A DNA stretch of 64,000 nucleotides, taken from the NCBI RefSeq assembly GCF_900539325.1, contig NZ_UQCC01000003.1. One strand, 5' to 3'. Source of the DNA: an uncultured Eubacterium sp. GTDB taxonomy: Bacteria > Bacillota > Clostridia > Oscillospirales > Acutalibacteraceae. This document shows, piece after piece, positions 1-31,527 of the stretch (positions are counted from its first letter, which is position 1; every line of letters begins with the position of its first letter). The position numbers and the translations under genes are program-made. A model generated the notes under the pieces. That model saw only the letters and a list, made by a program, of their open reading frames with translations, was not told where the DNA came from and searched no databases.

Positions 1-3000
1 CGCCGTCCTTTTGACCGCGAGTAAATACTACTTCATCATTGTATCTAAGCTGTTCAACCTTAAATTTGTAGTCATAACCGTATGATGTATCACACACATA
101 TACCGTATATGCTGTTTCATTTGAGAAGTCATATACAAGTGTGATATAGGTGTTGTCAGTGATTGTAACTGTTTCGCCGGCTTTCATTGTCTTGCCGTTT
201 ACCTCGAATGAATTAAAGGTATAATACGGAAGTTTTGGTGCTTTCGAAGCATCAAGAGTAACAACTGTGCCCGAAGCAACATAATCTGTTGCAACGATAG
301 ACGAGTTAACACCGTTTACATATGAAATCTTGCATTGATTTGAAGATGATGAAGCACTCTTTGTTGTGAGAGTTGTTTCACCTCTTACAATAAATGTAAG
401 TTCATCTGTTGTTGTATAAAGTTTCTTTGCTACAGTTGCAGACGGTGATTTCATTTCATAATACCAGTCTACAACAGGCTTATCAGTAAGTGAAACTGTA
501 ACCTCTGTACCGTAAGCATATGTGCCCTTTGTGTATGACTGATTTTCGTCACCGTTTGGAACAATCTTTACGGTATAAGTCTTAAGTTGAAGACCCTCAA
601 GAGCATTCTTGACTGCATTGTCGCAATCTGTTTGATCTGCGAAAACTTTTGTTGTAATGTTTACGCCTCTGACATTTACAACCTCTGTTTCCTTAAGTGC
701 ATCAAGAGCAGCTTTTCTTGCATCTTGGTCGTAAGCGTCAGGGTCGGTTCTGCTTTCGTTGTCTTTCTTGCATCCTTCAAGAGCGGTGGTGTCAGCAGTA
801 CTTTCTTTAAGAAGTGACTTAAAGCCTTCAATTGCAGTCTTTTCAGCATTTACAGCATTTACAACCTCAGTTTCGTCTGTATAGTGCTTTGCTTGCTCTA
901 CGGTTGACATATTAAGATATGTCAATGCGTTAAGCTTATCTCTCAATTCTTCAACCGAAGCCTTTGAATACTTGTTTTGTGCAATTGAATTTACAAGTGT
1001 TTCAGCTGCATTCTTAAGAGGAGTAAAGTTGATTTGATAAACAAGAGCATTAAACGCTTCTGTAAGTGCTGTTGCGTATGCGTCAACCTTTGACTGTTCT
1101 GATGCAGCAACATCGGTGATGTTGAGGTCGCTGAAATCACCTTGATACTGAGCAAGTGCATCTCTATATGCTTTGTCGAACGCAGTCCAGCTTGATGCCT
1201 TTACTTTTGCTTGGTCATTTTCATATGCGTTCTTTGTAGCTGCAAGTGCTTCCTTAAGCTTGGTGTTGTTAGCAGCCTTCTTAAGGTTCTTTCTTGCATT
1301 CCAAAGTGTTGTATATCTATTGTCACATTTCCTTAAAATATCACTATACGACATCTCGTTATAGTTGAAATTTTCATTTGCCGCTCTTGTAGCATCAATG
1401 AGAGTTTTCCAAGAAGATGTTGTATATTGATTTGATGTTGCAAGGAAGTCTTTAGCTGTACATTGTGCAATAAGGTCAAACAAAGGAACAACATTTACAA
1501 AGCTGATGTTAAAGTTGTACTTTGCTCTTTCAAAGCCATAGCCTGCCCATGTAACAACATTTGTAGGAGCGTACTTCCAAAAGTATACAACGCCGAAATA
1601 TGCATTTGTACTTGCAAGGTCAAGTCGTTTTGACATTGATGACGGAGTTGTTTTTTCGGAAAGTATATATGCGTCCGGGTCAACTGTAAGCTTTGTCTTT
1701 GTATCAAATTCTGTCCAGCCGTTCTTTGCATAAATACCGCCGTACGGTTGACTTGCATGATTGTCTGTTACGCCGAGTTCTGTTACAAAGTTGTGAGACG
1801 GATCGGTAATATAATTACCTTGCGAGTCAATGCCGAGTGCCTTACCTGTTGACTTAGTTACGGTAATATTATCAATTTCCATTTTTATACCGGCACTAAG
1901 ATTAAGCTGTGCTTTATAATCATCAATTTTATCGGCGCCGATAGCATTGTTTTTAGGCCAGCCCGTACCGGCTGTTGATGTTGAGCTTAACTCACCTGAC
2001 TGCACCTTACTTGCATCAAGGATGAGGGCGTCAACGCAAGATTCAAAGTCTGTACCTTTTTGCTTATTATACGAACCCCATCTTGATGTAGGAAGATAAT
2101 ACTCAAACTTTTCAGGCTTTGTCTTGAACAAAATAGAATTTGTTGTGTATTCCCAATAGAACTTATATTGGTCGCCTCTTGCAGATGACTGGAATTCGGT
2201 CTTGTAATTTGAGCCCTTATTTGCCGGCTGACCGTTTGGAATAAGTCTGAAAGCTGCGGCAAGGTTTGTAAATCCGTCTACTACATTATTAACAACGGTT
2301 GTATAGTTTGTAATTGCGTTTTCAACAATATCTGCAACTCTACCGTCGAATGTAACGATGCTGTCCTTATAAGTGTTTGCAGAGTTTACTGCGTCTTGGA
2401 GAACAACATAGTTGCCGTACTTTTCGTTTGCATCGGAAGTGTTATAGGTTTCTGCCTTTGCCAATGCTGTTGTCAACGAATAGCCCGATGTTGTTTCATG
2501 GTCAAAATTGATTTCTGCCTTTACAATTTCCGCACAAAGCTGCTCAACATAATTGTCTACCTTTGCTTGGTTTGCGTCGTTCAAATCAATTTTTTCTGTA
2601 TCAAAGCCGTAGTTTTCTTCAGAAACCCAGATTTCCGTCTTAATCTCTTTAACAAGAGCCTCGAGTGCTGCGGCATCTACTGTACCTGTCTTAAAGTATG
2701 TTGCATTGTGGATAAGAGCATCTGCATTGTTGATTGCTATTTCGAGAGTTTCTGTATTAACAACCTTACGAAGCATACCGGTTTTAAGGTTTTCCTTAGC
2801 AAGGTTAAGAGGTTCAATATACTGCTCTGCATCTGCCATTACCAAATCATTGGTGTAGAGATTGTAGAAGTAATTGATAGCATTCTTATATGCTGTATCA
2901 AAAGGATCCCAAACTTCTTTGGTATACTTTTCGTAATTATCATTGCCTGCGGTGTAAATCTTCTTTGCACTTGAGATTGCTGACTTTAACTGTGCATAAG

Positions 3001-5537: not shown

Positions 5538-6770
5538 ATGGACAAGAAAGACATCAAAAAAGTTGTTCTCGCATACAGCGGCGGACTTGATACATCAATC
5601 ATCATTCCTTGGCTCAAGGAAAACTACAACAACTGCGAAGTTATCGCAGTAAGCGGTGATGTAGGACAGGGCACGGAGCTTGACGGACTTGAAGAAAAGG
5701 CACTTGCAACAGGTGCATCAAAGCTTTACATCCTCGACCTCAAAAAGGAATATGTTGAAGATTACATTTGGCCTTGCCTCAAAGCAGGTGCAGAATACGA
5801 AAACTATCTTCTCGGCACATCGCACGCTCGTCCTTGCATTGCAAAGGCACTTGCAGAAGTAGCCAAGAAAGAGGGGGCAGACGCTATCTGCCACGGTTGC
5901 ACAGGCAAGGGCAACGACCAAGTTCGTTTTGAACTTACACTCAAGGCATTTGCACCTGAGATGGAAATCATTGCACCATGGCGTGAGTGGGACATCGTAT
6001 CCCGTGAGCAGGAAATCGAATATGCAGAGGCACACAACATTCCGCTCAAGATAAACCGTGAAACAAACTATTCAAAGGACAAGAACGTATGGCACCTCAG
6101 CCACGAAGGACTTGACCTTGAGGACCCGGCAAACGAGCCGCAATACAACAAGAAAGGCTTCCTTGAACTCGGCGTATCGCCTGAGCAGGCACCTGACGAG
6201 CCTACATATCTTACACTTCACTTTGAAAAAGGTGTTCCGACAGCTATTGACGGCAAAGAAATGGGTGCACTTGAAATCGTTGAAAAGCTCAACGAAGTCG
6301 GCGGCAAGAACGGCATCGGTCTTCTTGACATTGTTGAAAACCGTCTTGTAGGTATGAAATCCCGTGGTGTATATGAAACTCCGGGCGGCGAAATCCTTTA
6401 CAAGGCTCACGAAATGCTTGAAACAATCACTCTTGACAAGGAAACACAGCACTACAAGAAGCTCATCGCTCAAAAGTTTGGTGAGCTTGTATACAACGGT
6501 CAATGGTTTACTCCTCTTCGTGAAGCGCTTTCGGCTTTTGTTGACGAAACACAAAAGACTGTTACCGGTGATGTAAAAGTTAAGCTTTACAAGGGCAATG
6601 TTATCAACGCAGGTATCACATCACCATACACACTTTACGATGAAAATGTTGCATCATTCGGTGATGACGGCGGTGCATACAATCAGGCAGACGCCGCAGG
6701 CTTTATCAACCTCTTTGGTCTTTCAATCAAAGTTAAGGCATTGCTTGACCAAAACAGGGACAACAAGTAA
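5538..6770 (+). CDS. argG: Argininosuccinate synthase.
   Basis: 410 aa. N-terminal [11 protein letters not shown]-loop motif and overall ArgG-like sequence. Strong RBS AAAGGAG. Confidence 0.95.
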
Positions 6771-6890: not shown

Positions 6891-8264
6891 ATGGCACAAT
6901 TATGGAAGGGCAGGTTCAAGAAAGAGCTTGCCAAAGAAACCAACGACTTTAACTCATCCATCGGCTTTGACTGCCGTATGTTTGAGCAGGATATTAAAGG
7001 CTCGATTGCACACGCAACAATGCTTGGTGCAACGGGAATTATCGACAAGAGCGAAAGCGACAAAATCGTTGACGGCTTAAACGATATACTGAATGACATC
7101 AAAAGCGGCAAGCTTAGCATAGATATGGAAGCCGAGGACATCCACACATTTGTTGAGGGCGAACTCACGGCAAGGCTGGGACAAACGGGCAAGCGACTTC
7201 ACACCGCACGCTCAAGAAACGACCAGGTTGCACTTGACATTCGCCTTACTCTCCGTGACGAGATTGACGAAATCATTGCAAAACTCAAAGGTCTTGTAAC
7301 CGTTCTTTGCAACAAGGCGGAGGAGCACAGCAAAACGATTATGCCGGGCTACACACATCTTCAAAGAGCACAGCCAATCACATTCGGTCATCATTTGATG
7401 GCGTACTGTGCAATGATTTTGCGTGACATTGACCGCCTCGGCGATGTTAAAAAGAGAATGAACATCTGCCCGCTCGGTTCGGGTGCTCTTGCAGGCACAA
7501 CCTATCCGCTTGACAGAAATATGGTTGCGGATTTGCTCGGATTTGATGACATTACATACAATTCGCTTGACGGCGTATCGGACAGAGATTTTTGCATTGA
7601 ACTTGCAAGTGCACTTTCGCTTGTAATGGTGCACCTTTCACGCTTCAGCGAAGAAATCATTATGTGGTGCAGTTGGGAGTTTAAATTTGTTGAGCTTGAC
7701 GACGCATTTTCAACAGGCTCATCAATTATGCCGCAAAAGAAAAACCCTGATATTGCAGAACTTGTAAGAGGCAAGAGCGGACGGGTTTTCGGCGACCTCA
7801 CTACCCTGCTCACCGTTATGAAAGGCATTGCTCTTGCATACAACAAAGATATGCAGGAGGACAAAGAAGCTATATTTGACGCTGTTGACACGGTGAAAAT
7901 GTGCCTCAACGCATTTACTCCGATGATTGACACAATGACTGTGCTCAAGGACAATATGCGAAATGCAGCGGCAAAGGGATTCATCAACGCTACGGACTGT
8001 GCGGATTATCTTGTCGGCAAGGGTTTGCCGTTCAGAGATGCGTACAAGTGCACAGGCGAACTTGTTGCACTTTGCATAGACAAGGGGCTTACGCTTGAAA
8101 CGCTTCCGCTTGAAGAATATCAAAAGATTTGCGACCTCTTTGATGACGAGGTTTACACAGCGATTAATCTTGAAAAATGCGTAAAAGACAGAAAGGTTGC
8201 AGGCTCTCCGTGCCCTGAAAATGTTTTGGCACAGGTTAAAGCCGCAAGAGAAAAAATCAAATAA
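6891..8264 (+). CDS. argH: Argininosuccinate lyase.
   Basis: 457 aa. Fumarate-lyase signature GSSIMPQKKNPD and ArgH-like N-terminus. Confidence 0.95.
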   Translation: MAQLWKGRFKKELAKETNDFNSSIGFDCRMFEQDIKGSIAHATMLGATGIIDKSESDKIVDGLNDILNDIKSGKLSIDMEAEDIHTFVEGELTARLGQTGKRLHTARSRNDQVALDIRLTLRDEIDEIIAKLKGLVTVLCNKAEEHSKTIMPGYTHLQRAQPITFGHHLMAYCAMILRDIDRLGDVKKRMNICPLGSGALAGTTYPLDRNMVADLLGFDDITYNSLDGVSDRDFCIELASALSLVMVHLSRFSEEIIMWCSWEFKFVELDDAFSTGSSIMPQKKNPDIAELVRGKSGRVFGDLTTLLTVMKGIALAYNKDMQEDKEAIFDAVDTVKMCLNAFTPMIDTMTVLKDNMRNAAAKGFINATDCADYLVGKGLPFRDAYKCTGELVALCIDKGLTLETLPLEEYQKICDLFDDEVYTAINLEKCVKDRKVAGSPCPENVLAQVKAAREKIK

Positions 8265-8282: not shown

Positions 8283-9128
8283 ATGATAACAATTACCGAC
8301 AAAACACAATTTGACGATGTTGGAGAAAACAAAATCATCCACGGCGACATAAACAACATTGAATTTGAACAAAGCAGTATTACCTTTAACGGTTCAAACA
8401 ACATAATCGTGATTGAGAACGGGGTTAAGATGAAAAACTGCATGCTGAAAATCAACGGTGAAAACACGCTGTTTTACCTGAGTGAAAGCAAGCATTGGTA
8501 CTATCTTGACATCACGGGCAACAACAATACTTCAATTTATTTTGGCAAGAACTGCTTTCTCAACGGCAGACTTGTTGCCGTTACTTCCGAAAGACAAAAC
8601 ATTTTCATCGGCAACGACGGATTGTTTTCTTACGGAATAACTTTGCGCACAGCCGACCCGCATTTGGTATTTGACTGCGAAACAAAACAACGCATAAACC
8701 ACAGTGCTTCGGTGCTTTTGGGTGACCATGTTTGGCTCGGTCAGGGTGCAATGCTCCTCAAAGGAACGCAAATCGGATCGGGTTCTATCATCGGAGCGGC
8801 GGCAGTGTGTGCCGGCAAAAAGGTGCCGTCCAACGCATCTTATGCGGGAAATCCTGCCAAGCTCATCAAACAGGGAGTGTTCTTCACCAACAAGTGCGTT
8901 CATCAATGGACAGAGGAAATGACTGCCGAGAACGAGATTGACAACAGCGACAAATGGATTTATTCGCACGACAAAAACACGGTGAGCCTTGCAAGTGTTG
9001 ACGAAGCAATTAAAAAGTGCAAGTCGGCAGAAGAAAAGCTTGAATACCTCCAAAACGGTCTTCCGAAAGGCAAAAACAGATTTTATATTGAACCTAAAAA
9101 AACTAAAAAAGGTTTATTTTCAAGATAA
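8283..9128 (+). CDS. Hexapeptide-repeat (left-handed beta-helix) acyl/acetyltransferase family protein with a roughly 90-aa C-terminal extension.
   Basis: Repeated [LIV]G-x4 hexapeptide pattern (VLLGDHVWLGQGAMLLKGTQIGSGSIIGAAAV). RBS GAGGTG before the ATG at 8283. The track ORF begins at an upstream GTG at 8274. Confidence 0.6.
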   Translation: MITITDKTQFDDVGENKIIHGDINNIEFEQSSITFNGSNNIIVIENGVKMKNCMLKINGENTLFYLSESKHWYYLDITGNNNTSIYFGKNCFLNGRLVAVTSERQNIFIGNDGLFSYGITLRTADPHLVFDCETKQRINHSASVLLGDHVWLGQGAMLLKGTQIGSGSIIGAAAVCAGKKVPSNASYAGNPAKLIKQGVFFTNKCVHQWTEEMTAENEIDNSDKWIYSHDKNTVSLASVDEAIKKCKSAEEKLEYLQNGLPKGKNRFYIEPKKTKKGLFSR

Positions 9129-9132
9129 AGCA

Positions 9133-9170
9133 AAAGAGTACGAAGCAAAGAAAGCCTCGTACTCTTTATT
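9133..9170. terminator. Bidirectional intrinsic terminator between the convergent acetyltransferase gene and the 5-gene operon.
   Basis: Hairpin aaagagtacga...tcgtactcttt flanked by T-runs. Confidence 0.6.
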
Positions 9171-9177
9171 TTCTGTG

Positions 9178-24402: not shown

Positions 24403-25134
24403 TTAATTAGGCGTATAAAGGTTTGCATACGGTCGGGAAGATGCCGGAGCAAGCTTTTTGAAAGGCTTTGACATAATCTCATCATAGTCCTTATCAAAAT
24501 ACTTGCAATACTTTTTTACATATGTTTTAAGTTCTTTTTCGTCATCTTTTGTAAGCGACTCCACATTAATGTTAGGTGCAAGGTTTTCCTTTGGAACTTT
24601 GCCTCTGACAAAAATCTTGCCGCCGTGCATACCCGACGCACAGTGAGTGCCGAACAACTTTTCTCCCCTTTTCATATTAAGACCGAGGAGAACGATTGTG
24701 CCCCCTGCCATATACTCACCGAGAAACGAGCCTGCATTTTCGCCGATAACAAGAACAGGACGCATCTGCCTGAACTCTTTCATATGAATACCGCCACGGC
24801 ACGCAACATTGTCCTTGATATAAATCTGACCGTCACGCATACCGTAACCCATAGCGTCACCGCTGTGACCGTGGACTACAATTTCACCGCCGCCCATCGT
24901 GTTGCCCACAGCGTCCTGACAGTTGCCGTAAACAACGATTCTGCCGCCGTTGAGATAGCAAGCCATATCATTGCCCGGTGTACCGTACACCTCAATGGTT
25001 TTGCCCTCATCAAGAGCACAGCCGATATATCTTTGACCGTTAACATCTTTAACGGTTGCCTTATTTTTCTTTTCTAATTCCTTTTTAATTTCGTCGTTAA
25101 CTTCTTCATAACGGCGAAGTCCTGCTTCTATCAT
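24403..25134 (-). CDS. Glutamate synthase GXGXG-domain subunit (archaeal-type GltB3, domain 4 of the large subunit).
   Basis: 243 aa. Repeated G-x-G-x-G beta-helix motifs (VYGNCQDAVGNTMGGGEIVVHGHSGDAMGYGM). Confidence 0.8.
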   Translation of the reverse strand: MIEAGLRRYEEVNDEIKKELEKKNKATVKDVNGQRYIGCALDEGKTIEVYGTPGNDMACYLNGGRIVVYGNCQDAVGNTMGGGEIVVHGHSGDAMGYGMRDGQIYIKDNVACRGGIHMKEFRQMRPVLVIGENAGSFLGEYMAGGTIVLLGLNMKRGEKLFGTHCASGMHGGKIFVRGKVPKENLAPNINVESLTKDDEKELKTYVKKYCKYFDKDYDEIMSKPFKKLAPASSRPYANLYTPN

Positions 25135-25146
25135 TGCAATCCCTCC

Positions 25147-26673
25147 TTATTCGCCTGCATGCTTGATACCGAGAATTTCCAATTCTTTATCAGAAAGTCC
25201 GATACCTCTGAGCATAAGTCTGTTGCCACGGAGAGAGTCGATAGAGTTGATACCCATACCGCCCATAATTTCCTTAATTTCGTGATTCCAAGCATTGATA
25301 AGATTTACTACTCTCTTGCTTGCAACCTTTGGGTCAAGACGCTTTGTAAGTTCGGGACGCTGAGTTGCGATACCCCAATTACATTTGCCTGTGTTACAGG
25401 TTTGGCACATATGACAACCCATTGCAATAAGAGCCGCCGAAGCAATATAGCAAGCATCCGCACCGAGAGCGATAGCCTTAACAATATCGCTTGAACAACG
25501 GAACGAACCGGAAGCTACAAGAGAAACCTCTGAACGAATACCCTCATCACGAAGTCTTTGATCTGCCGCCGCAAGTGCAAGTTCAAGCGGAATACCAACA
25601 TTGTCACGAATACGGGTAGGAGCGGCACCTGTACCGCCTCTGAAGCCGTCAATAACAACAATATCGGCACCGGCTCTTGCAACACCCGAAGCGATAGCCG
25701 CAATGTTATGAACAGCAGCAATTTTAACGGCAACGGGTTTTTGATTATTTGTAGCTTGTTTGAGCGACCAAATAAGCTGACGCAAGTCCTCGATAGAATA
25801 AATATCGTGGTGAGGAGCAGGAGAAATAGCGTCACTGCCCTCCGGAATCATACGGGCATTTGAAACCTCAACGGTTACTTTCTCGCCCGGAAGATGTCCG
25901 CCGATACCCGGCTTTGCACCCTGACCGATTTTTATTTCTATAAACTTTGAATTGTTAAGATAGTCCTTGTGAACACCGAATCTGCCCGATGCAACCTGAA
26001 CAACAGCATAATCCGTAAAATCTTCAAGTGCCGGATGCAAACCGCCCTCACCTGTGTTGAAAAGGCTTCCGATTTCCTTTGCAGCCATGGCAAGAGATTT
26101 TTGTGCATTAAGGCTGATTGAACCAAACGACATTGCCGAAAACATAATAGGTGTTTCAAGAACAACCTGAGGCGGCATTTCAGTAATTGATTTGCCCTTT
26201 TTTTCAACTTCTAACTTCTTTGGTTTTCTGCCCAAAATCGCACGGATTTCCATAGGCTCACGAAGCGGGTCGATTGACGGGTTTGTAACCTGAGAAGCGT
26301 TGAGCAAAATTTTATCCCAATAAATCGGATAATCCTGCGGATTGCCCATTGCAGACAAGAGGGTTGAACCCGTGCTTGCCTGACGGCAAATCTCCTGCTG
26401 ATAGCGAGGAGTCCAGTTTGCATTGTCACGATAATCGCAAACATATTTTTCTATGCGAAGTGCACCAACCGGGCACAAATCAACACATCTGTGGCAGGCA
26501 ACGCAACCGTTTGAATTTGAAATAACCGTCTTTTTGTCATCTGCAAAAAAGTGACATTCATTTGAGCACTGTGTTACACAAAGTCCGCAATTTGTACAAA
26601 GTGCCTTGTCACGAATAATATTAAAACGACGAGGAATATAATTGATTGCCATATCAGTATTCCTCCTTTTCAT
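25147..26673 (-). CDS. Glutamate synthase FMN-binding subunit with an N-terminal 2x[4Fe-4S] ferredoxin domain (archaeal-type GltB2).
   Basis: Two Cx2Cx2Cx3C(P) motifs (CTNCGLCVTQC and CVACHRCVDLCPVG) followed by a GltS FMN/Fe-S central-domain-like sequence (GEGG, Cys cluster CHMCQTCNTGKC). Confidence 0.85.
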   Translation of the reverse strand: MKRRNTDMAINYIPRRFNIIRDKALCTNCGLCVTQCSNECHFFADDKKTVISNSNGCVACHRCVDLCPVGALRIEKYVCDYRDNANWTPRYQQEICRQASTGSTLLSAMGNPQDYPIYWDKILLNASQVTNPSIDPLREPMEIRAILGRKPKKLEVEKKGKSITEMPPQVVLETPIMFSAMSFGSISLNAQKSLAMAAKEIGSLFNTGEGGLHPALEDFTDYAVVQVASGRFGVHKDYLNNSKFIEIKIGQGAKPGIGGHLPGEKVTVEVSNARMIPEGSDAISPAPHHDIYSIEDLRQLIWSLKQATNNQKPVAVKIAAVHNIAAIASGVARAGADIVVIDGFRGGTGAAPTRIRDNVGIPLELALAAADQRLRDEGIRSEVSLVASGSFRCSSDIVKAIALGADACYIASAALIAMGCHMCQTCNTGKCNWGIATQRPELTKRLDPKVASKRVVNLINAWNHEIKEIMGGMGINSIDSLRGNRLMLRGIGLSDKELEILGIKHAGE

Positions 26674-27754
26674 CTATTTCAAGAGGAACAAAAACAGGCT
26701 GTGCACCGCTGATTGACCAAACCTTTTCAGGGTCGGGACATACAACACGAATAGCCGATTCCTCGGAAGCAAAATACGCTCTGTCGCCCTTTGTAGCCGC
26801 CGTTAGCGAACGAAGCTTAAGTCTGTCGTTAATAGCCAAAAGTCCCTTATTTGAACCGAGGATAACCGAAAACGGGCCGTTAACAAGCGCACCGCTGTAA
26901 ATTGCACGAAGATTTGTAAAATATTCTTTTCTCTCGTCGTCCATACGGTCTATTTCGTCCCATTCCGGAGCCGTAAGTACATCAGCCGCAACATCCATAG
27001 GAAGCTCGTGGTGGCGAAGCAAGTGGTCAAACAGATATGTAATAACCTCTGTATCGGTTTGCATTGTACACTTATAACCGAACTGCTCAATATATCTTCT
27101 GTTTGCGTCATAAGACGAAATTTCACCGTTGTGAACGATTGACCAATCAAGAATGTTAAACGGATGAGCACCGCCCCACCAGCCCGGTGTATTGGTTGGA
27201 AATCTGCCGTGAGCCGTCCACAAATAGGCATCGTAATGGTCAAGCATAAAGAACTCGCCGACATCTTCGGGATAGCCTACCGCTTTGAAGCATCCCATAT
27301 TTTTACCCGATGAAAAGATGTAAGCACCTTCAAAATTTGCGTTTACCTTTGTAACGCACTGAACAACATATTCCTGCTCATCCATACGGGCATCACGCAT
27401 ACGAACTCTGTTCGGCTTGCCGAAATAACGCCAAATATCCGGTCCGTTTTCTATAGATTCCACCTTTTTTGTAGGAATTCTTTCCGCAACATCCACATTA
27501 AAGTGTTTAAAGAGATACTCCTCGCACTTTTGACGGGCATCCTTTGTGTCATAAAACACATGAAAAGCATAATCGTCCTTGTGGTCGGGATAAATTCCGT
27601 AAGCGGCAAATCCGCCGCCGAGACCGTTTGAACGGTCGTGCATTAATGCTATTGACTTGATAATTTCCGAACCGTTAATCGGGTTGCCTTTTTTATCAAT
27701 GATAGCCGCAATGGCACAACCGCTCGGAATTCTTACCTGTCCTTCCTTTAGCAT
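26654..27754 (-). CDS. Glutamate synthase glutamine amidotransferase subunit (class II GATase, archaeal-type GltB1).
   Basis: RBS AGGAGGGAAA plus ATG at 27754. PSGCAIAAII provides the Ntn catalytic Cys after a short propeptide. Overlaps the gltB2 start by 20 nt. Confidence 0.8.
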   Translation of the reverse strand: MLKEGQVRIPSGCAIAAIIDKKGNPINGSEIIKSIALMHDRSNGLGGGFAAYGIYPDHKDDYAFHVFYDTKDARQKCEEYLFKHFNVDVAERIPTKKVESIENGPDIWRYFGKPNRVRMRDARMDEQEYVVQCVTKVNANFEGAYIFSSGKNMGCFKAVGYPEDVGEFFMLDHYDAYLWTAHGRFPTNTPGWWGGAHPFNILDWSIVHNGEISSYDANRRYIEQFGYKCTMQTDTEVITYLFDHLLRHHELPMDVAADVLTAPEWDEIDRMDDERKEYFTNLRAIYSGALVNGPFSVILGSNKGLLAINDRLKLRSLTAATKGDRAYFASEESAIRVVCPDPEKVWSISGAQPVFVPLEIDEKEEY

Positions 27755-27989
27755 ACATTTCCCTCCTAAAAGCATTTATATATCTAAATATATTTTTATA
27801 ATACTACTATGAATTTTATTGTTCAACAGTATAAAAAAATTTTGTAAAATCCGAAAAAAATTAAATATTTTCCACCTTCGTTTTTATGAAATTATACAAA
27901 TAATTTGACAAAAAATTACAAGCAGGAGCAGTCAAAAAACAGATGTGTATTTCTGTCAAAAACTGTTCCTGCCGATTTTCTATTCCGAA

Positions 27990-29726
27990 TTATTCTCCTT
28001 GTAAAGCATCGTATCCTCTTTCTCCGGTACGAACCTTTACAACATCCTCAACATCGTAAACAAAGATTTTACCGTCGCCGATATTGCCGGTGTAAAGAAC
28101 CTTTCTTGCCGCTTCAATAACGGTTTCTACTGGAACAGCCGAAATAACCATTTCAAGCTTCATCTTAGGGTTGAGATTCATTTCTTCAATCTCGACACCA
28201 CGATATTTACGAATATGACCTTTTTGAACACCACAGCCCATAACATTTGTAACAGTCATACCCGTTACGCCGATAGCATTCATAGCCTCTTTGATTTCCT
28301 CAAACTTTGCAGGATTGAATATCATACATACCTTGCTGAGGGTCGGATTTTTTTCTGTTGTATATGTTTCAACAGGAACTGCCTTTTCAACCGGAGCAGA
28401 CGGAGGCATTACATCCATAGCCGGAATAGCCGATACGGCAGAGCCCGAAGCATAGCTTACAGCCGGCATAAAGTCTGCATAAGCCGACGGAAGATTGTGT
28501 TCTGTTGAGTCAAGACCCTTGATTTCCTCTTCTGCATCAACACGAAGGCCGACAGTCTTTTTGATAATAAGGAATGTGATTGTGATTGTTACCGCAGTCC
28601 AAGCAGCAACGGCAACAAAACCCAAAAGCTGAATACCGAGTTGCTTAAATCCGCCGCCGTAGAAAAGACCCTTGCCTACACCGTCGGCGCCTGTTGAGAA
28701 CAAACCTACTGCGATTGTACCCCAAACACCGTTTGCACAGTGAACGGCAACAGCACCTACAGGGTCGTCAATATGGAGCTTTTTGTCAAGAAGTTCTACA
28801 ACCAAAACTACAAGAATACCTGATACAGCACCGATTACAATAGAACCTGTAGCATCAACGCAGTCGCAAGGAGCGGTAACTGCTACAAGACCCGCAAGAG
28901 AGCCGTTGAGTGACATTGAAACATCAGGAGCACCGTCCTTAATCCATGTGAAAATCATTGTTACACAAGTGGCAACGGCAGGAGCCATTGTTGTGGTAAG
29001 GAAGATTGAAGCGAGTGTTTTGGTATCCGTTGCGGCAGCACCGTTAAAGCCGTACCATCCGAACCAAAGGATGAATACACCGAGTGCACCGAGAGTCAAC
29101 GAGTGACCCGGAATAGCCTTTGCTTTGAGCTTGCCTGTTTTCTTATCCTTTACATACTTGCCGATACGAGGACCGAGGAAAGCCGCACCGATAAGAGCTG
29201 AAATGCCGCCTACCATATGAATTGCGGTTGAACCTGCGTAATCGTGGAAGCCCATTTGTGCAAGCCAGCCCTGCGAATTCCAAATCCAACCTGCCTCAAT
29301 CGGATAAATAACTGCCGAGATAACGCCCGAATAAATACAATACGAAATGAACTTTGTACGCTCTGCCATTGCACCTGAAACGATTGTAGCCGCAGTAGCA
29401 CAAAATACAAGGTTAAATACAAACACAGGCCAATTACCGGAACTACCTGCGTAATCGGTGAGCAAACCGAGGGTAGGAAGCCCGAACAAACCGCCGATGT
29501 ATTCCTCGCCCATCATAAGACCGAAGCCTAAAACAATAAACGCAACCGCACCGATACAAAAATCCATCAGGTTTTTCATAATAATGTTACCTGCGTTTTT
29601 AGCACGGGTAAAGCCGCTTTCTACCATTGCAAAGCCGCATTGCATAAAGAATACCAATGCCGCACCTATCATATACCACACCCCATAAACATTATCGGAT
29701 ATGGCCGTCATTATTGAATCTGTCAT
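27990..29726 (-). CDS. amt: Ammonium transporter (Amt) with a C-terminal fused PII (GlnK/GlnB) nitrogen-regulatory domain.
   Basis: 578 aa. 11-TM Amt core, a roughly 50-aa linker, then a clear PII domain (MIFNPAKFEEIKEAMNAIGVTGMTVTNVMGCGVQKGH...IGDGKIFVYDVEDVVKVRTGE). RBS GGAGGAGAG. Confidence 0.9.
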   Translation of the reverse strand: MTDSIMTAISDNVYGVWYMIGAALVFFMQCGFAMVESGFTRAKNAGNIIMKNLMDFCIGAVAFIVLGFGLMMGEEYIGGLFGLPTLGLLTDYAGSSGNWPVFVFNLVFCATAATIVSGAMAERTKFISYCIYSGVISAVIYPIEAGWIWNSQGWLAQMGFHDYAGSTAIHMVGGISALIGAAFLGPRIGKYVKDKKTGKLKAKAIPGHSLTLGALGVFILWFGWYGFNGAAATDTKTLASIFLTTTMAPAVATCVTMIFTWIKDGAPDVSMSLNGSLAGLVAVTAPCDCVDATGSIVIGAVSGILVVLVVELLDKKLHIDDPVGAVAVHCANGVWGTIAVGLFSTGADGVGKGLFYGGGFKQLGIQLLGFVAVAAWTAVTITITFLIIKKTVGLRVDAEEEIKGLDSTEHNLPSAYADFMPAVSYASGSAVSAIPAMDVMPPSAPVEKAVPVETYTTEKNPTLSKVCMIFNPAKFEEIKEAMNAIGVTGMTVTNVMGCGVQKGHIRKYRGVEIEEMNLNPKMKLEMVISAVPVETVIEAARKVLYTGNIGDGKIFVYDVEDVVKVRTGERGYDALQGE

Positions 29727-29749
29727 ATTTCTCTCCTCCTATATTTTGT

Positions 29750-29806
29750 TATAAACAGAAAAAATAAAAACGAAGTGCGAAAACACCGTTTACCGCAAGG
29801 TGTTTT
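29750..29806 (-). terminator. Intrinsic terminator of glnA, lying immediately upstream of the amt RBS.
   Basis: Minus-strand hairpin agtgcaaaacacc/ggtgttttcgcact followed by UCGUUUUUAUUUUUU. Confidence 0.75.
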
Positions 29807-29985
29807 GCACTCCGTTGTGCTAAAGATTAGTGCCAATGCCACAGCCGATTAAGACTGCGGCATTGACCGTACAGCATATAAATGCCATAAGAGAGGGTTC
29901 GCTAAGCGAACCTTGCCCGATATTTCTACCGGACAAGCCGCAATTTACAGGTAACCTGTCTTACCTATAAAACATTTTGGTATGA

Positions 29986-31332
29986 TTAATAGTTAATCAT
30001 ATATCTGTTGATTTCCCATTGAGATACAGCAGTCTTATAAGAATTCCATTCTTCCTTTTTACCTTCAATGTAGTTATTAAATACATGGTCACCGAGAGTT
30101 TCCTTAATGAACGGATCTTCCTCTGCTGCCTTAATAGCTTCTTCAAGAGAACCAGGAAGACAATCAATGCCTGCTGCTTCCTTTTCTTCATCAGAAAGTT
30201 CAAATACATTTTCATCAAATGCAGGAGCCGGCTTCAAACCTTTTTTGATACCGTCAAGACCTGCTGCAAGGCAAAGAGCCATTTCAAGATATGGGTTGCA
30301 AGTTGGGTCAGGACAACGAAGTTCAACTCTTGTACCCTTACCGCGAGCGGCAGGAATACGAACAAGTACAGAACGGTTTGATGTTGACCATACAAGATAT
30401 GACGGAGCTTCGTAGCCCGGTACAAGTCTTTTGTATGAGTTTACTGTTGGGTTTGAAATAGCCGCAATAGCTTTAACATGAGCCATAATACCTGCAATGA
30501 ATGAATAAGCTGTATCGCTGAGTTCAAGATCACCGTTTGGATCATAGAATACATTTTCACCTGTCTTTAAATCATAAAGTGACATATTGGTGTGCATACC
30601 CGAACCGTTGATACCCTCAACAGGCTTTGGCATAAATGTTGCATGAAGGCCGTGCTTTGTAGCATAAGTCTTTACAACATGCTTAAAGGTCATAACTCTG
30701 TCGGCTGTTGTCATAACATCGCCGAACTGGAAGTCAATTTCGTGCTGACCCTGAGCGACCTCGTGGTGAGATGCCTCAATGGTGTAGCCCATTTCTTCAA
30801 GTGCAAGGCAAATATCACGACGGCAGTTTTCGCCATGGTCGATAGGGTTGAGGTCAAAGTAGCCTGCTTCGTCGCCTGTTTCAAGAGTAGGAAGACCGTT
30901 TTCGTCAAGTTTGAAGAGGAAGAATTCACATTCAGGACCTACATTGAAGCCGTAGCCCATTTCTGCTGCTTCATCAATAACCTTTTGGAGAACATTTCTC
31001 GGGTCGCCCTCAAAAGGTGTAACATTGTCTGCTTTATATACAGAACAGATAAGTCTTGCTGTCTGTGCGTTAAGGTGTTTTCTCCAAGGGAAAATTGCCC
31101 ATGTATCAAAATCAGGATGTAAGTACATATCGGATTCATCAATTCTTACGAAACCGTCGATTGATGAGCCGTCGAACATACAATCATTGTTAAGTGCCTT
31201 TTCAAGCTGTGATAATGTGATGGCAACATTCTTCATAATACCAAAAAGGTCGGTAAACTGAAGTCTTATAAACTGTACGCCGTTTTCTTTTGCTTCTTTG
31301 AGGATGTCCTCTTTTGTGTATTTACTCATCAT
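29986..31332 (-). CDS. glnA: Glutamine synthetase type I.
   Basis: GS catalytic motifs and an overall GSI-alpha-like sequence. RBS GGGAG plus ATGATG at 31332. The track ORF starts 11 codons upstream. Confidence 0.95.
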
Positions 31333-31347
31333 AAATACTCCCTTCTC

Positions 31348-31438
31348 TATAATATAAAAAGACAAGGCGTCCCGAAAAATCGGAACGCCTTTGTTCTAAC
31401 TACAATGTCATTATATCCCTGCAATCTGCCGTTGTCAA
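31348..31438 (-). promoter_or_regulatory. glnA promoter and leader: consensus TTGACA-N17-TATAAT (minus strand; -35 at 31433-31438, -10 at 31410-31415), then a terminator-like hairpin (31364-31392) and U-tract directly before the RBS.
   Basis: Exact hexamers with a 17-nt spacer. Leader hairpin aaggcguuccg-auuuuu-cgggacgccuu (9/10 bp) followed by gUCUUUUUAUAUUAU. Confidence 0.6.
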
Positions 31439-31527
31439 CAAAATACGGGATATTTATTCAACTTTGTAAAAATTCAACGGTCGACCTTTAATTTTCAACC
31501 GTCCTCTTTGTGAAAATTATACAACAA

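Follow-up and report, generated by a model that had tools for sequence, protein, structure and literature searches.

In the 64-kb stretch of DNA analysed here (the window), glnA and amt-PII each lie behind a transcription attenuator, in which a small hexaloop hairpin and an intrinsic terminator overlap and share bases. The two copies, placed within what we predict to be a single glnA/amt-PII operon, belong to a conserved, nitrogen-linked family of units that is probably of the ANTAR type and dependent on a protein, as judged from sequence comparison. The switch type itself is already known, and hairpins 5' of amt, P-II and glnA genes were predicted earlier (PMC3369931). The single-hairpin layout is unusual, and many gut and rumen Clostridia have it.

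Two attenuators in the glnA and amt-PII locus

On the minus strand, the window contains a sigma-70 promoter, glnA, a spacer, amt-PII, a strong terminator and a glutamate synthase encoded by three ORFs, in this order (Table 1). The true start of glnA is the ATG at 31332, and the gene call of strain variants likewise gives a product of 448 aa; the TTG start at 31365 proposed by the ORF finder falls within the terminator of attenuator 1 in the glnA leader. The amt-PII gene encodes one protein of about 580 aa in which an ammonium transporter is joined to a GlnK-like P-II domain, and its alignments are near full-length in all 80 related loci (from Clostridia, Treponema and MAGs labelled Bacteroides). 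Strain variants with the same gene order are present in public metagenome assemblies, and the species-level relatives that come closest, at Amt-PII identities of 74-83%, are uncultured Clostridia or Ruminococcaceae MAGs. Seven relatives also have glnA directly 5' of amt-PII.

Table 1. Features of the glnA/amt-PII locus and their positions in the window.
Feature	Position	Strand	Basis and remarks
glnA promoter, TTGACA-17-TATAAT	31410..31438	-	promoter scan; matches 12/12
Attenuator 1 hairpin, GAAC-AAAGGC-GUUC	31383..31396	-	custom scan; -2.6 kcal/mol alone
Attenuator 1 intrinsic terminator, AAGGCGUUCCGA-UUUU-UCGGGACGCCUU then GUCUUUUUAU	31354..31391	-	terminator scan
glnA, type I glutamine synthetase, 448 aa	29986..31332	-	Pfam Gln-synt_N, Gln-synt_C
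glnA-amt spacer, 259 nt	29727..29985	-	sequence
H1 (29971-29944), H2 (29936-29913) and H2b (29912-29896)	29896..29971	-	fold; three stable hairpins
Pyrimidine motif CCCUCUCU, 8 nt	29890..29897	-	alignment
H3, short hairpin, AUGGCA/UGCCAU	29870..29889	-	fold and alignment
H4, 15-bp hairpin without a proper U tract	29832..29867	-	fold
Attenuator 2 hairpin, GCAC-AACGGA-GUGC	29807..29820	-	scan; -5.3 kcal/mol alone
Attenuator 2 intrinsic terminator (stem 29816-29769, U tract to 29759)	29759..29816	-	fold; -24.3 kcal/mol
amt-PII, 578 aa (coding 29726-27990; GGAGG Shine-Dalgarno 29739-29735)	27990..29739	-	Pfam Ammonium_transp, P-II

In both attenuators the first base of the hexaloop is A and the fourth is G (A1 and G4; AACGGA, 29816-29811; AAAGGC, 31392-31387). 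The 5' arm of the attenuator 2 terminator starts at loop position 1 and runs into the 3' arm of the hairpin, and in attenuator 1 the terminator 5' arm consists of the hexaloop plus the hairpin 3' arm. Because the loop and 3' arm bases are shared, the hexaloop hairpin and the terminator are mutually exclusive. In attenuator 2, the terminator is so much more stable than the hairpin (-24.3 versus -5.3 kcal/mol) that it would win unaided. The whole glnA leader folds at -22.8 kcal/mol, and 13 nt separate the end of the glnA -10 hexamer from the attenuator 1 hairpin.

From the last U of the attenuator 2 tract (29759) it is 19 nt to the GGAGG Shine-Dalgarno of amt-PII, and a promoter scan found no sigma-70-like promoter on the minus strand anywhere in the spacer (29985-29727). 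Given the missing promoter and the closeness of the U tract to the Shine-Dalgarno, amt-PII can soundly be taken to depend on read-through. The preliminary description of this region had rightly placed a terminator shortly before the amt ribosome binding site and had offered read-through or an embedded promoter as the two ways to express amt; the former is borne out, and the latter finds no sigma-70-like site in the spacer to work from. Sigma-54-like TGGCA..TGC strings seen by eye in H3 and H4 were discarded, as their GG-to-GC distances are 9 and 12 nt, not 10. A search for the GlnR/TnrA box (TGTNAN7TNACA, at most one mismatch) returned nothing within 29727-29985 (the spacer) or 31333-31480 (leader and promoter of glnA).

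A scan of the window with a descriptor of the unit (a stem of 4 bp or more with an AANGNN loop, in which a terminator arm of 8 bp or more begins, followed by a U tract) returned exactly two hairpin-plus-terminator units, the one in the glnA leader and the one in the spacer. The glutamate synthase (gltS) further downstream is encoded by separate ORFs for GATase_2, for Fer4 plus Glu_synthase and for GXGXG (24403-27775, minus strand) in an archaeal-type layout, and it has its own extended -10 promoter, TGTATAAT, at about 27897-27890. The unit scan found no hexaloop unit in its upstream region (27989-27776), though GOGAT genes of related loci carry units. A TnrA/GlnR box match with one mismatch, TTTGACAAAAAATTACA, is located at this promoter (27904-27920); the window contains 53 such one-mismatch matches versus about 38 expected by chance.

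The hexaloop unit in related loci

Applied to 81 sequences (the window and 80 related amt loci), the same descriptor found 110 units, versus 10 in reversed and 1-3 in shuffled sequences. The A1/G4 combination of loop bases stands out, with 126 units versus 15-45 for each other base combination. The 8-mer CAANGNNG, which was counted regardless of pairing, occurs at 4.3 per kb in amt leaders versus 1.5 per kb overall, and 67% of its copies in leaders have at least 3 further stem pairs, compared with about 5% of those elsewhere.

An orthologous spacer hairpin with covarying stems is present in six relatives (L001, L003, L004, L006, L007 and L044): the loop is constantly AAYGGN, and the stems vary (GCAC/GUGC, ACAC/GUGU, AAUGU/ACAUU). 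This small hairpin sits just 5' of the terminator in every lineage that has the terminator. TATAAT-like strings just 5' of the hairpin in L003 and L006 have no -35 element, and we rejected them as promoters because a start there would remove the 5' arm of the hairpin. In the glnA leaders of L001, L003 and L004, about 60-100 nt upstream of glnA, the hairpin loop is GAGGGC, with G at position 1.

We examined covariation in 39 aligned units. These had been selected for pairing, so the diversity of pair types is informative and the percentage of paired cells is not. In the hairpin, 79.5% of cells are paired, and cells with double changes number 69 versus 23 in shuffled alignments; in the terminator, 89.5% are paired and double-change cells number 161 versus 46, with 0 of 500 shuffles as high in either case. 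None of the slid alignment registers of these 39 units approaches the observed covariation. The closing C-G pair is invariant (39/39), as are loop positions A1, A2 and G4, and covariation is seen in the pairs below the closing one. CM R1, a covariance model of the 39 units, recovers both window units, matching attenuator 2 at 29824-29761 (26.1 bits, E = 0.0006) and attenuator 1 at 31400-31355 (22.0 bits, E = 0.007). Its best match in the window is at 9124-9176 on the plus strand, an ordinary bidirectional terminator between convergent genes; this candidate has a loop AAAAGA, lacks a competing hairpin and was rejected as a unit, and the specificity of the model is therefore limited.

The genes 3' of units comprise 56 Amt(-PII) genes, 27 glutamine synthetases of types I and III and 15 GOGAT genes, and single units precede AsnA, PurF, PyrG and CarA; all of these downstream genes use ammonium or glutamine. 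One or two units are found in 45 of the 81 amt leaders, and many amt leaders without a unit belong to operons whose first gene has one. Cultured strains that carry the unit include Ruminococcus flavefaciens ND2009, Butyrivibrio sp. FCS014, Lacrimispora sinapis JR3 and Ruminococcus sp. JE7B6. These conserved units across related loci bear out the earlier proposal that the terminator is regulated, in a design associated with genes of nitrogen assimilation. In 64 of 109 units, 6-15 nt separate the hairpin from the end of a near-consensus -10 box, so the transcript would begin at or just 5' of the hairpin.

Two readings that dispense with a regulatory protein can be weighed against these data. The spacer could hold an ordinary glnA terminator accompanied by stabilising hairpins; amt-PII would then owe its expression to unregulated leak-through or to a promoter that escaped recognition. 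H4 and H2b do score as weak terminator-like sites, and stacked hairpins are common at mRNA 3' ends. Set against this are the lack of a promoter-like site in the spacer, the conservation and covariation of a hexaloop hairpin specific to nitrogen genes, and the presence of a unit immediately 3' of the glnA promoter, a senseless place for a plain terminator, and we regard the reading as very improbable. A metabolite-sensing riboswitch in the spacer, for glutamine for example, would suit the genetic context and act without protein, yet it is hardly credible: the conserved core is tiny (a stem of 4-7 bp and six loop bases, starting at about +1 to +8), the sequences of the larger hairpins are not conserved, and no Rfam family matches even at E = 10. 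The glnA RNA (RF01739) and Downstream-peptide families in particular are absent both from the whole window at the gathering threshold and from 29600-30100 up to E = 10; matches to ohsC and NrrF on the opposite strand were dismissed as chance hits of terminator-like models. The stability of the terminator relative to the hairpin, together with the missing Rfam match, argues for a protein-dependent switch and against a self-contained RNA sensor.

Hairpins of the spacer outside the switch

The spacer (29985-29727) is highly structured, as had been supposed: it folds at -102.2 kcal/mol, compared with -60.9 +/- 4.8 for shuffled sequences (z = -8.6; 0 of 200 shuffles as good). The three hairpins and the terminator listed in the preliminary description all exist, at positions displaced by about 10-13 nt. 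Its first hairpin, uauagguaa-GACAGG-uuaccugua, lies at 29971-29944 and not at 29936-29959; gguucgc-uua-gcgaacc lies at 29912-29896 and not at 29886-29902; the long stem comprises 15 bp rather than 11 and spans 29867-29832 instead of 29824-29855; and the terminator, given as 29750-29806, has its stem at 29816-29769 and a U tract to 29759. Missing from that inventory were hairpins at 29936-29913 and 29889-29870, the hexaloop hairpin of the switch (29820-29807) and the attenuator copy in the glnA leader.

Conservation and covariation, by which the hairpins were to be judged, separate them into two groups. H1, H2 and H2b were not found in the alignment with relatives L001, L003, L004, L006 and L044, and no second copy of them occurs in the window or the related loci; they are identical across strain variants L084-L086. 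The hexaloop hairpin, the terminator and H3 persist with compensatory changes (H3 is GUUGACA/UGUCAAC in L003), and H4 keeps its shape with a different sequence in each relative. The three hairpins stressed earlier thus do not make up the switch, since H1 and H2b are absent from relatives and H4 is kept as a shape only. H1, H2 and H2b are specific to the window lineage and lie outside the switch. The spacers of L084 and L086, which are about 2% diverged overall, differ from that of the window at 1 of 259 positions, a C-to-U change in the H4 loop. As a whole, the spacer does not behave as a repeat or mobile element, as no other copy was found in the window or the 80 loci.

The motif CCCUCUCU, together with H3 and H4, recurs in L001, L003, L006 and L044. 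In L003, L006 and L044 the glnA stop codon immediately precedes the motif; in L001 and the window the motif is farther downstream, and H2b of the window ends with its first two C. The motif is predicted to be unpaired in separate folds of the window spacer fragment and of four relatives, and the alignment shows it to be missing from L002, L004 and L005. We consider the CCCUCUCU/H3/H4 module a conserved piece of the glnA 3' untranslated region that is not part of the switch.

This module raises the question of a small RNA. The spacer as a whole, or its stretch reaching from CCCUCUCU to the terminator, might be released as a stable RNA from the glnA 3' untranslated region whose C/U-rich motif pairs with Shine-Dalgarno sequences, which could coexist with an attenuator. 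A conserved motif predicted to be unpaired in five lineages and followed by two hairpins and a terminator would fit such an RNA, the GGAGAG of the amt ribosome binding site is base-paired to CUCUCU in the window fold, and enterobacteria have a small RNA from the glnA 3' untranslated region, GlnZ (PMC9731577). Any CU-rich run is able to pair with GGAGG, however, the motif is not kept in all relatives, and no Rfam family matches, so that we think this reading improbable. The putative RNA of the window resembles GlnZ of the Enterobacteriaceae (PMC9731577) in being structured, located 3' of the glnA stop codon and ended by a terminator. The two have no sequence relation, and in the window a co-directional gene follows the terminator, which carries an antiterminator. 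A more specific version, which we would call rather doubtful, is that CCCUCUCU, H3, H4 and the terminator form a small RNA made when nitrogen is sufficient and attenuator 2 stops transcription, and that its unpaired C/U-rich seed silences the Shine-Dalgarno sequences of other genes. If this were true, one terminator would both shut off amt-PII and create a trans-acting regulator.

Comparison with ANTAR systems and a model of the switch

We compared the unit with the ANTAR-target RNAs, the substrates of EutV, NasR and AmiR. Terminators controlled by EutV share a 13-nt sequence, AGCAANGRRGCUY, at the 5' base of the terminator (Ramesh et al. 2012, PMC3369931). It forms a stem of 3 bp with C-G as the closing pair, topped by a hexaloop whose A1 and G4 are indispensable (PMC3369931). 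The hits of a genome-wide search in that study include ANTAR RNAs 5' of genes for ammonium transporters, P-II proteins and glutamine synthetase in Clostridia (PMC3369931, Table S2), the genomes concerned being those of Clostridium thermocellum, Ethanoligenens, Caldicellulosiruptor, Alkaliphilus and Desulfotomaculum. The units described here have the C-G closing pair and the A1/G4 hexaloop, their core fits AGCAANGRRGCUY, the hairpin is positioned at the 5' base of an intrinsic terminator, and the target genes belong to nitrogen metabolism. The 4-bp stems of the two window units (GCAC/GUGC and GAAC/GUUC) exceed the 3 bp needed at minimum for an ANTAR site. Unlike in the known targets, loop position 6 is mostly C and not a purine, loop position 1 is G in some relatives, and the units have no upstream P1 hairpin and are mostly near the transcription start.

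The last of these differences concerns a defining feature. The canonical ANTAR substrate consists of two hexaloop hairpins 5-12 nt apart, and deletion of P1 or a change of the linker abolishes antitermination by EutV. A crystal-structure study gave the minimal ANTAR site a new definition, a single hexaloop (PMC8934654), but doubted that one loop suffices during transcription. We found no P1 hairpin 5-12 nt upstream of the attenuator 2 hairpin (before 29820). In the glnA leader, UGAC-AUUGUA-GUUA was considered as P1 and rejected; it overlaps the -10 box and would therefore be incompletely transcribed. Across the family, a hexaloop hairpin occurs up to 40 nt upstream in only 15 of 109 units, versus a 9% background, and the position of the -10 box (64/109 units) leaves no room for P1. 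The unit therefore does not qualify as a canonical dual-hairpin ANTAR target, in which P1 is present. The features of the RNA nevertheless make a strong case that it would work like an ANTAR attenuator.

Because P1 is missing, the main alternative is that the layout is that of an attenuator and the hexaloop is read by a trans-acting factor of another kind, for example a different RNA-binding protein of the nitrogen network. The lack of P1, and of room for it, runs against what EutV was shown to require, the first loop base is G in some relatives, and the 64-kb window contains no ANTAR gene. The loop and closing pair fit the ANTAR consensus, the minimal site has been redefined as a single hexaloop (PMC8934654), and ANTAR genes lie within or adjoining the regulon in L069, L059 and L081. 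On balance, we consider a non-ANTAR factor unlikely and prefer an ANTAR-type regulator.

The search for such a regulator gave a mixed picture. A small HMM built from the EutV, Rv1626 and NasR domains found no ORF with an ANTAR domain (PF03861) within the window, and a regex search for ANTAR ORFs gave no match; the same HMM found both ANTAR genes in the related loci, and these matches were confirmed with Pfam. An ANTAR gene near regulon genes is present in only 2 of the 80 related loci, L069 and L059. The gene order in L069 is unit, amt-PII, glnA and ANTAR (ANTAR at 7283-7831); in L059, the ANTAR gene (830-1429, minus strand) is divergent from the unit, GS-III and amt-PII. In Butyrivibrio hungatei an ANTAR gene lies directly 3' of glnA, and Butyrivibrio locus L081 has one at 6001-6549; we found no unit in front of the glnA-ANTAR operon of B. 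hungatei. The nearby ANTAR proteins (L069, L059, L081) have about 182-199 aa. The N-terminal halves of those from L069 and L059 have at most a weak, sub-threshold match to the Pfam receiver domain, and, judged by eye, the Asp that normally accepts the phosphoryl group appears to be missing from the L069 protein. These features suggest that the ANTAR proteins of the relatives may be controlled by a partner protein or ligand, not by phosphorylation.

Glutamine synthetase and an ANTAR-type antiterminator gene are reportedly linked in Clostridium, as glnA-nitR (glnR). The Butyrivibrio loci L069 and L081 have the same gene order, whereas the gene after glnA in the window is amt-PII and not an ANTAR gene. 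Another parallel comes from Geobacter, whose ANTAR protein GnfR acts as an antiterminator of nitrogen genes, glnK-amtB among them (PMC2995071). As in the GnfK/GnfR system, which controls nitrogen-fixation genes of Geobacter sulfurreducens by antitermination (PMC2995071), an ANTAR regulator would here override terminators in the leaders of nitrogen genes. GnfR differs in being a phosphorylated response regulator that acts downstream of sigma-54 promoters; the promoters here match the sigma-70 consensus, and the nearby ANTAR proteins in relatives match the receiver domain only weakly, below threshold.

We propose the following model. The glnA and amt-PII genes would form one transcription unit from the promoter at 31438-31410, with a start at about 31403. 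Attenuator 1 (31396-31354) would decide whether glnA is transcribed, and attenuator 2 (29820-29759) whether transcription continues into amt-PII. In each, the terminator 5' arm would alternatively be held in a weak 4-bp hairpin with a hexaloop AANGGN, the putative ANTAR recognition element. When nitrogen is limiting, an active ANTAR-type regulator would bind the hexaloop hairpin as it emerges from the polymerase; the bound hairpin would keep its own 3' arm from the terminator, and the polymerase would read on. When nitrogen is sufficient, the stabler terminator would form, and transcripts would end before glnA or between glnA and amt. As amt-PII would lie behind two attenuators in series, its response is expected to be steeper than that of glnA.

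In summary, the units provide a testable model of how uncultured gut and rumen Clostridia (Oscillospiraceae, Ruminococcaceae, Lachnospiraceae) may switch on ammonium uptake and assimilation. One simple RNA signal would mark the regulon, comprising amt-PII, glnA or glnN, GOGAT, asnA and others, and two serial attenuators would grade the expression of glnA and amt differently. The family consists almost entirely of single hexaloop hairpins at predicted transcript 5' ends, which bears on whether ANTAR proteins need a dual hairpin in co-transcriptional antitermination. The promoter-proximal single-hexaloop unit, insufficient during transcription under the EutV model, may represent a distinct working mode of ANTAR regulation.
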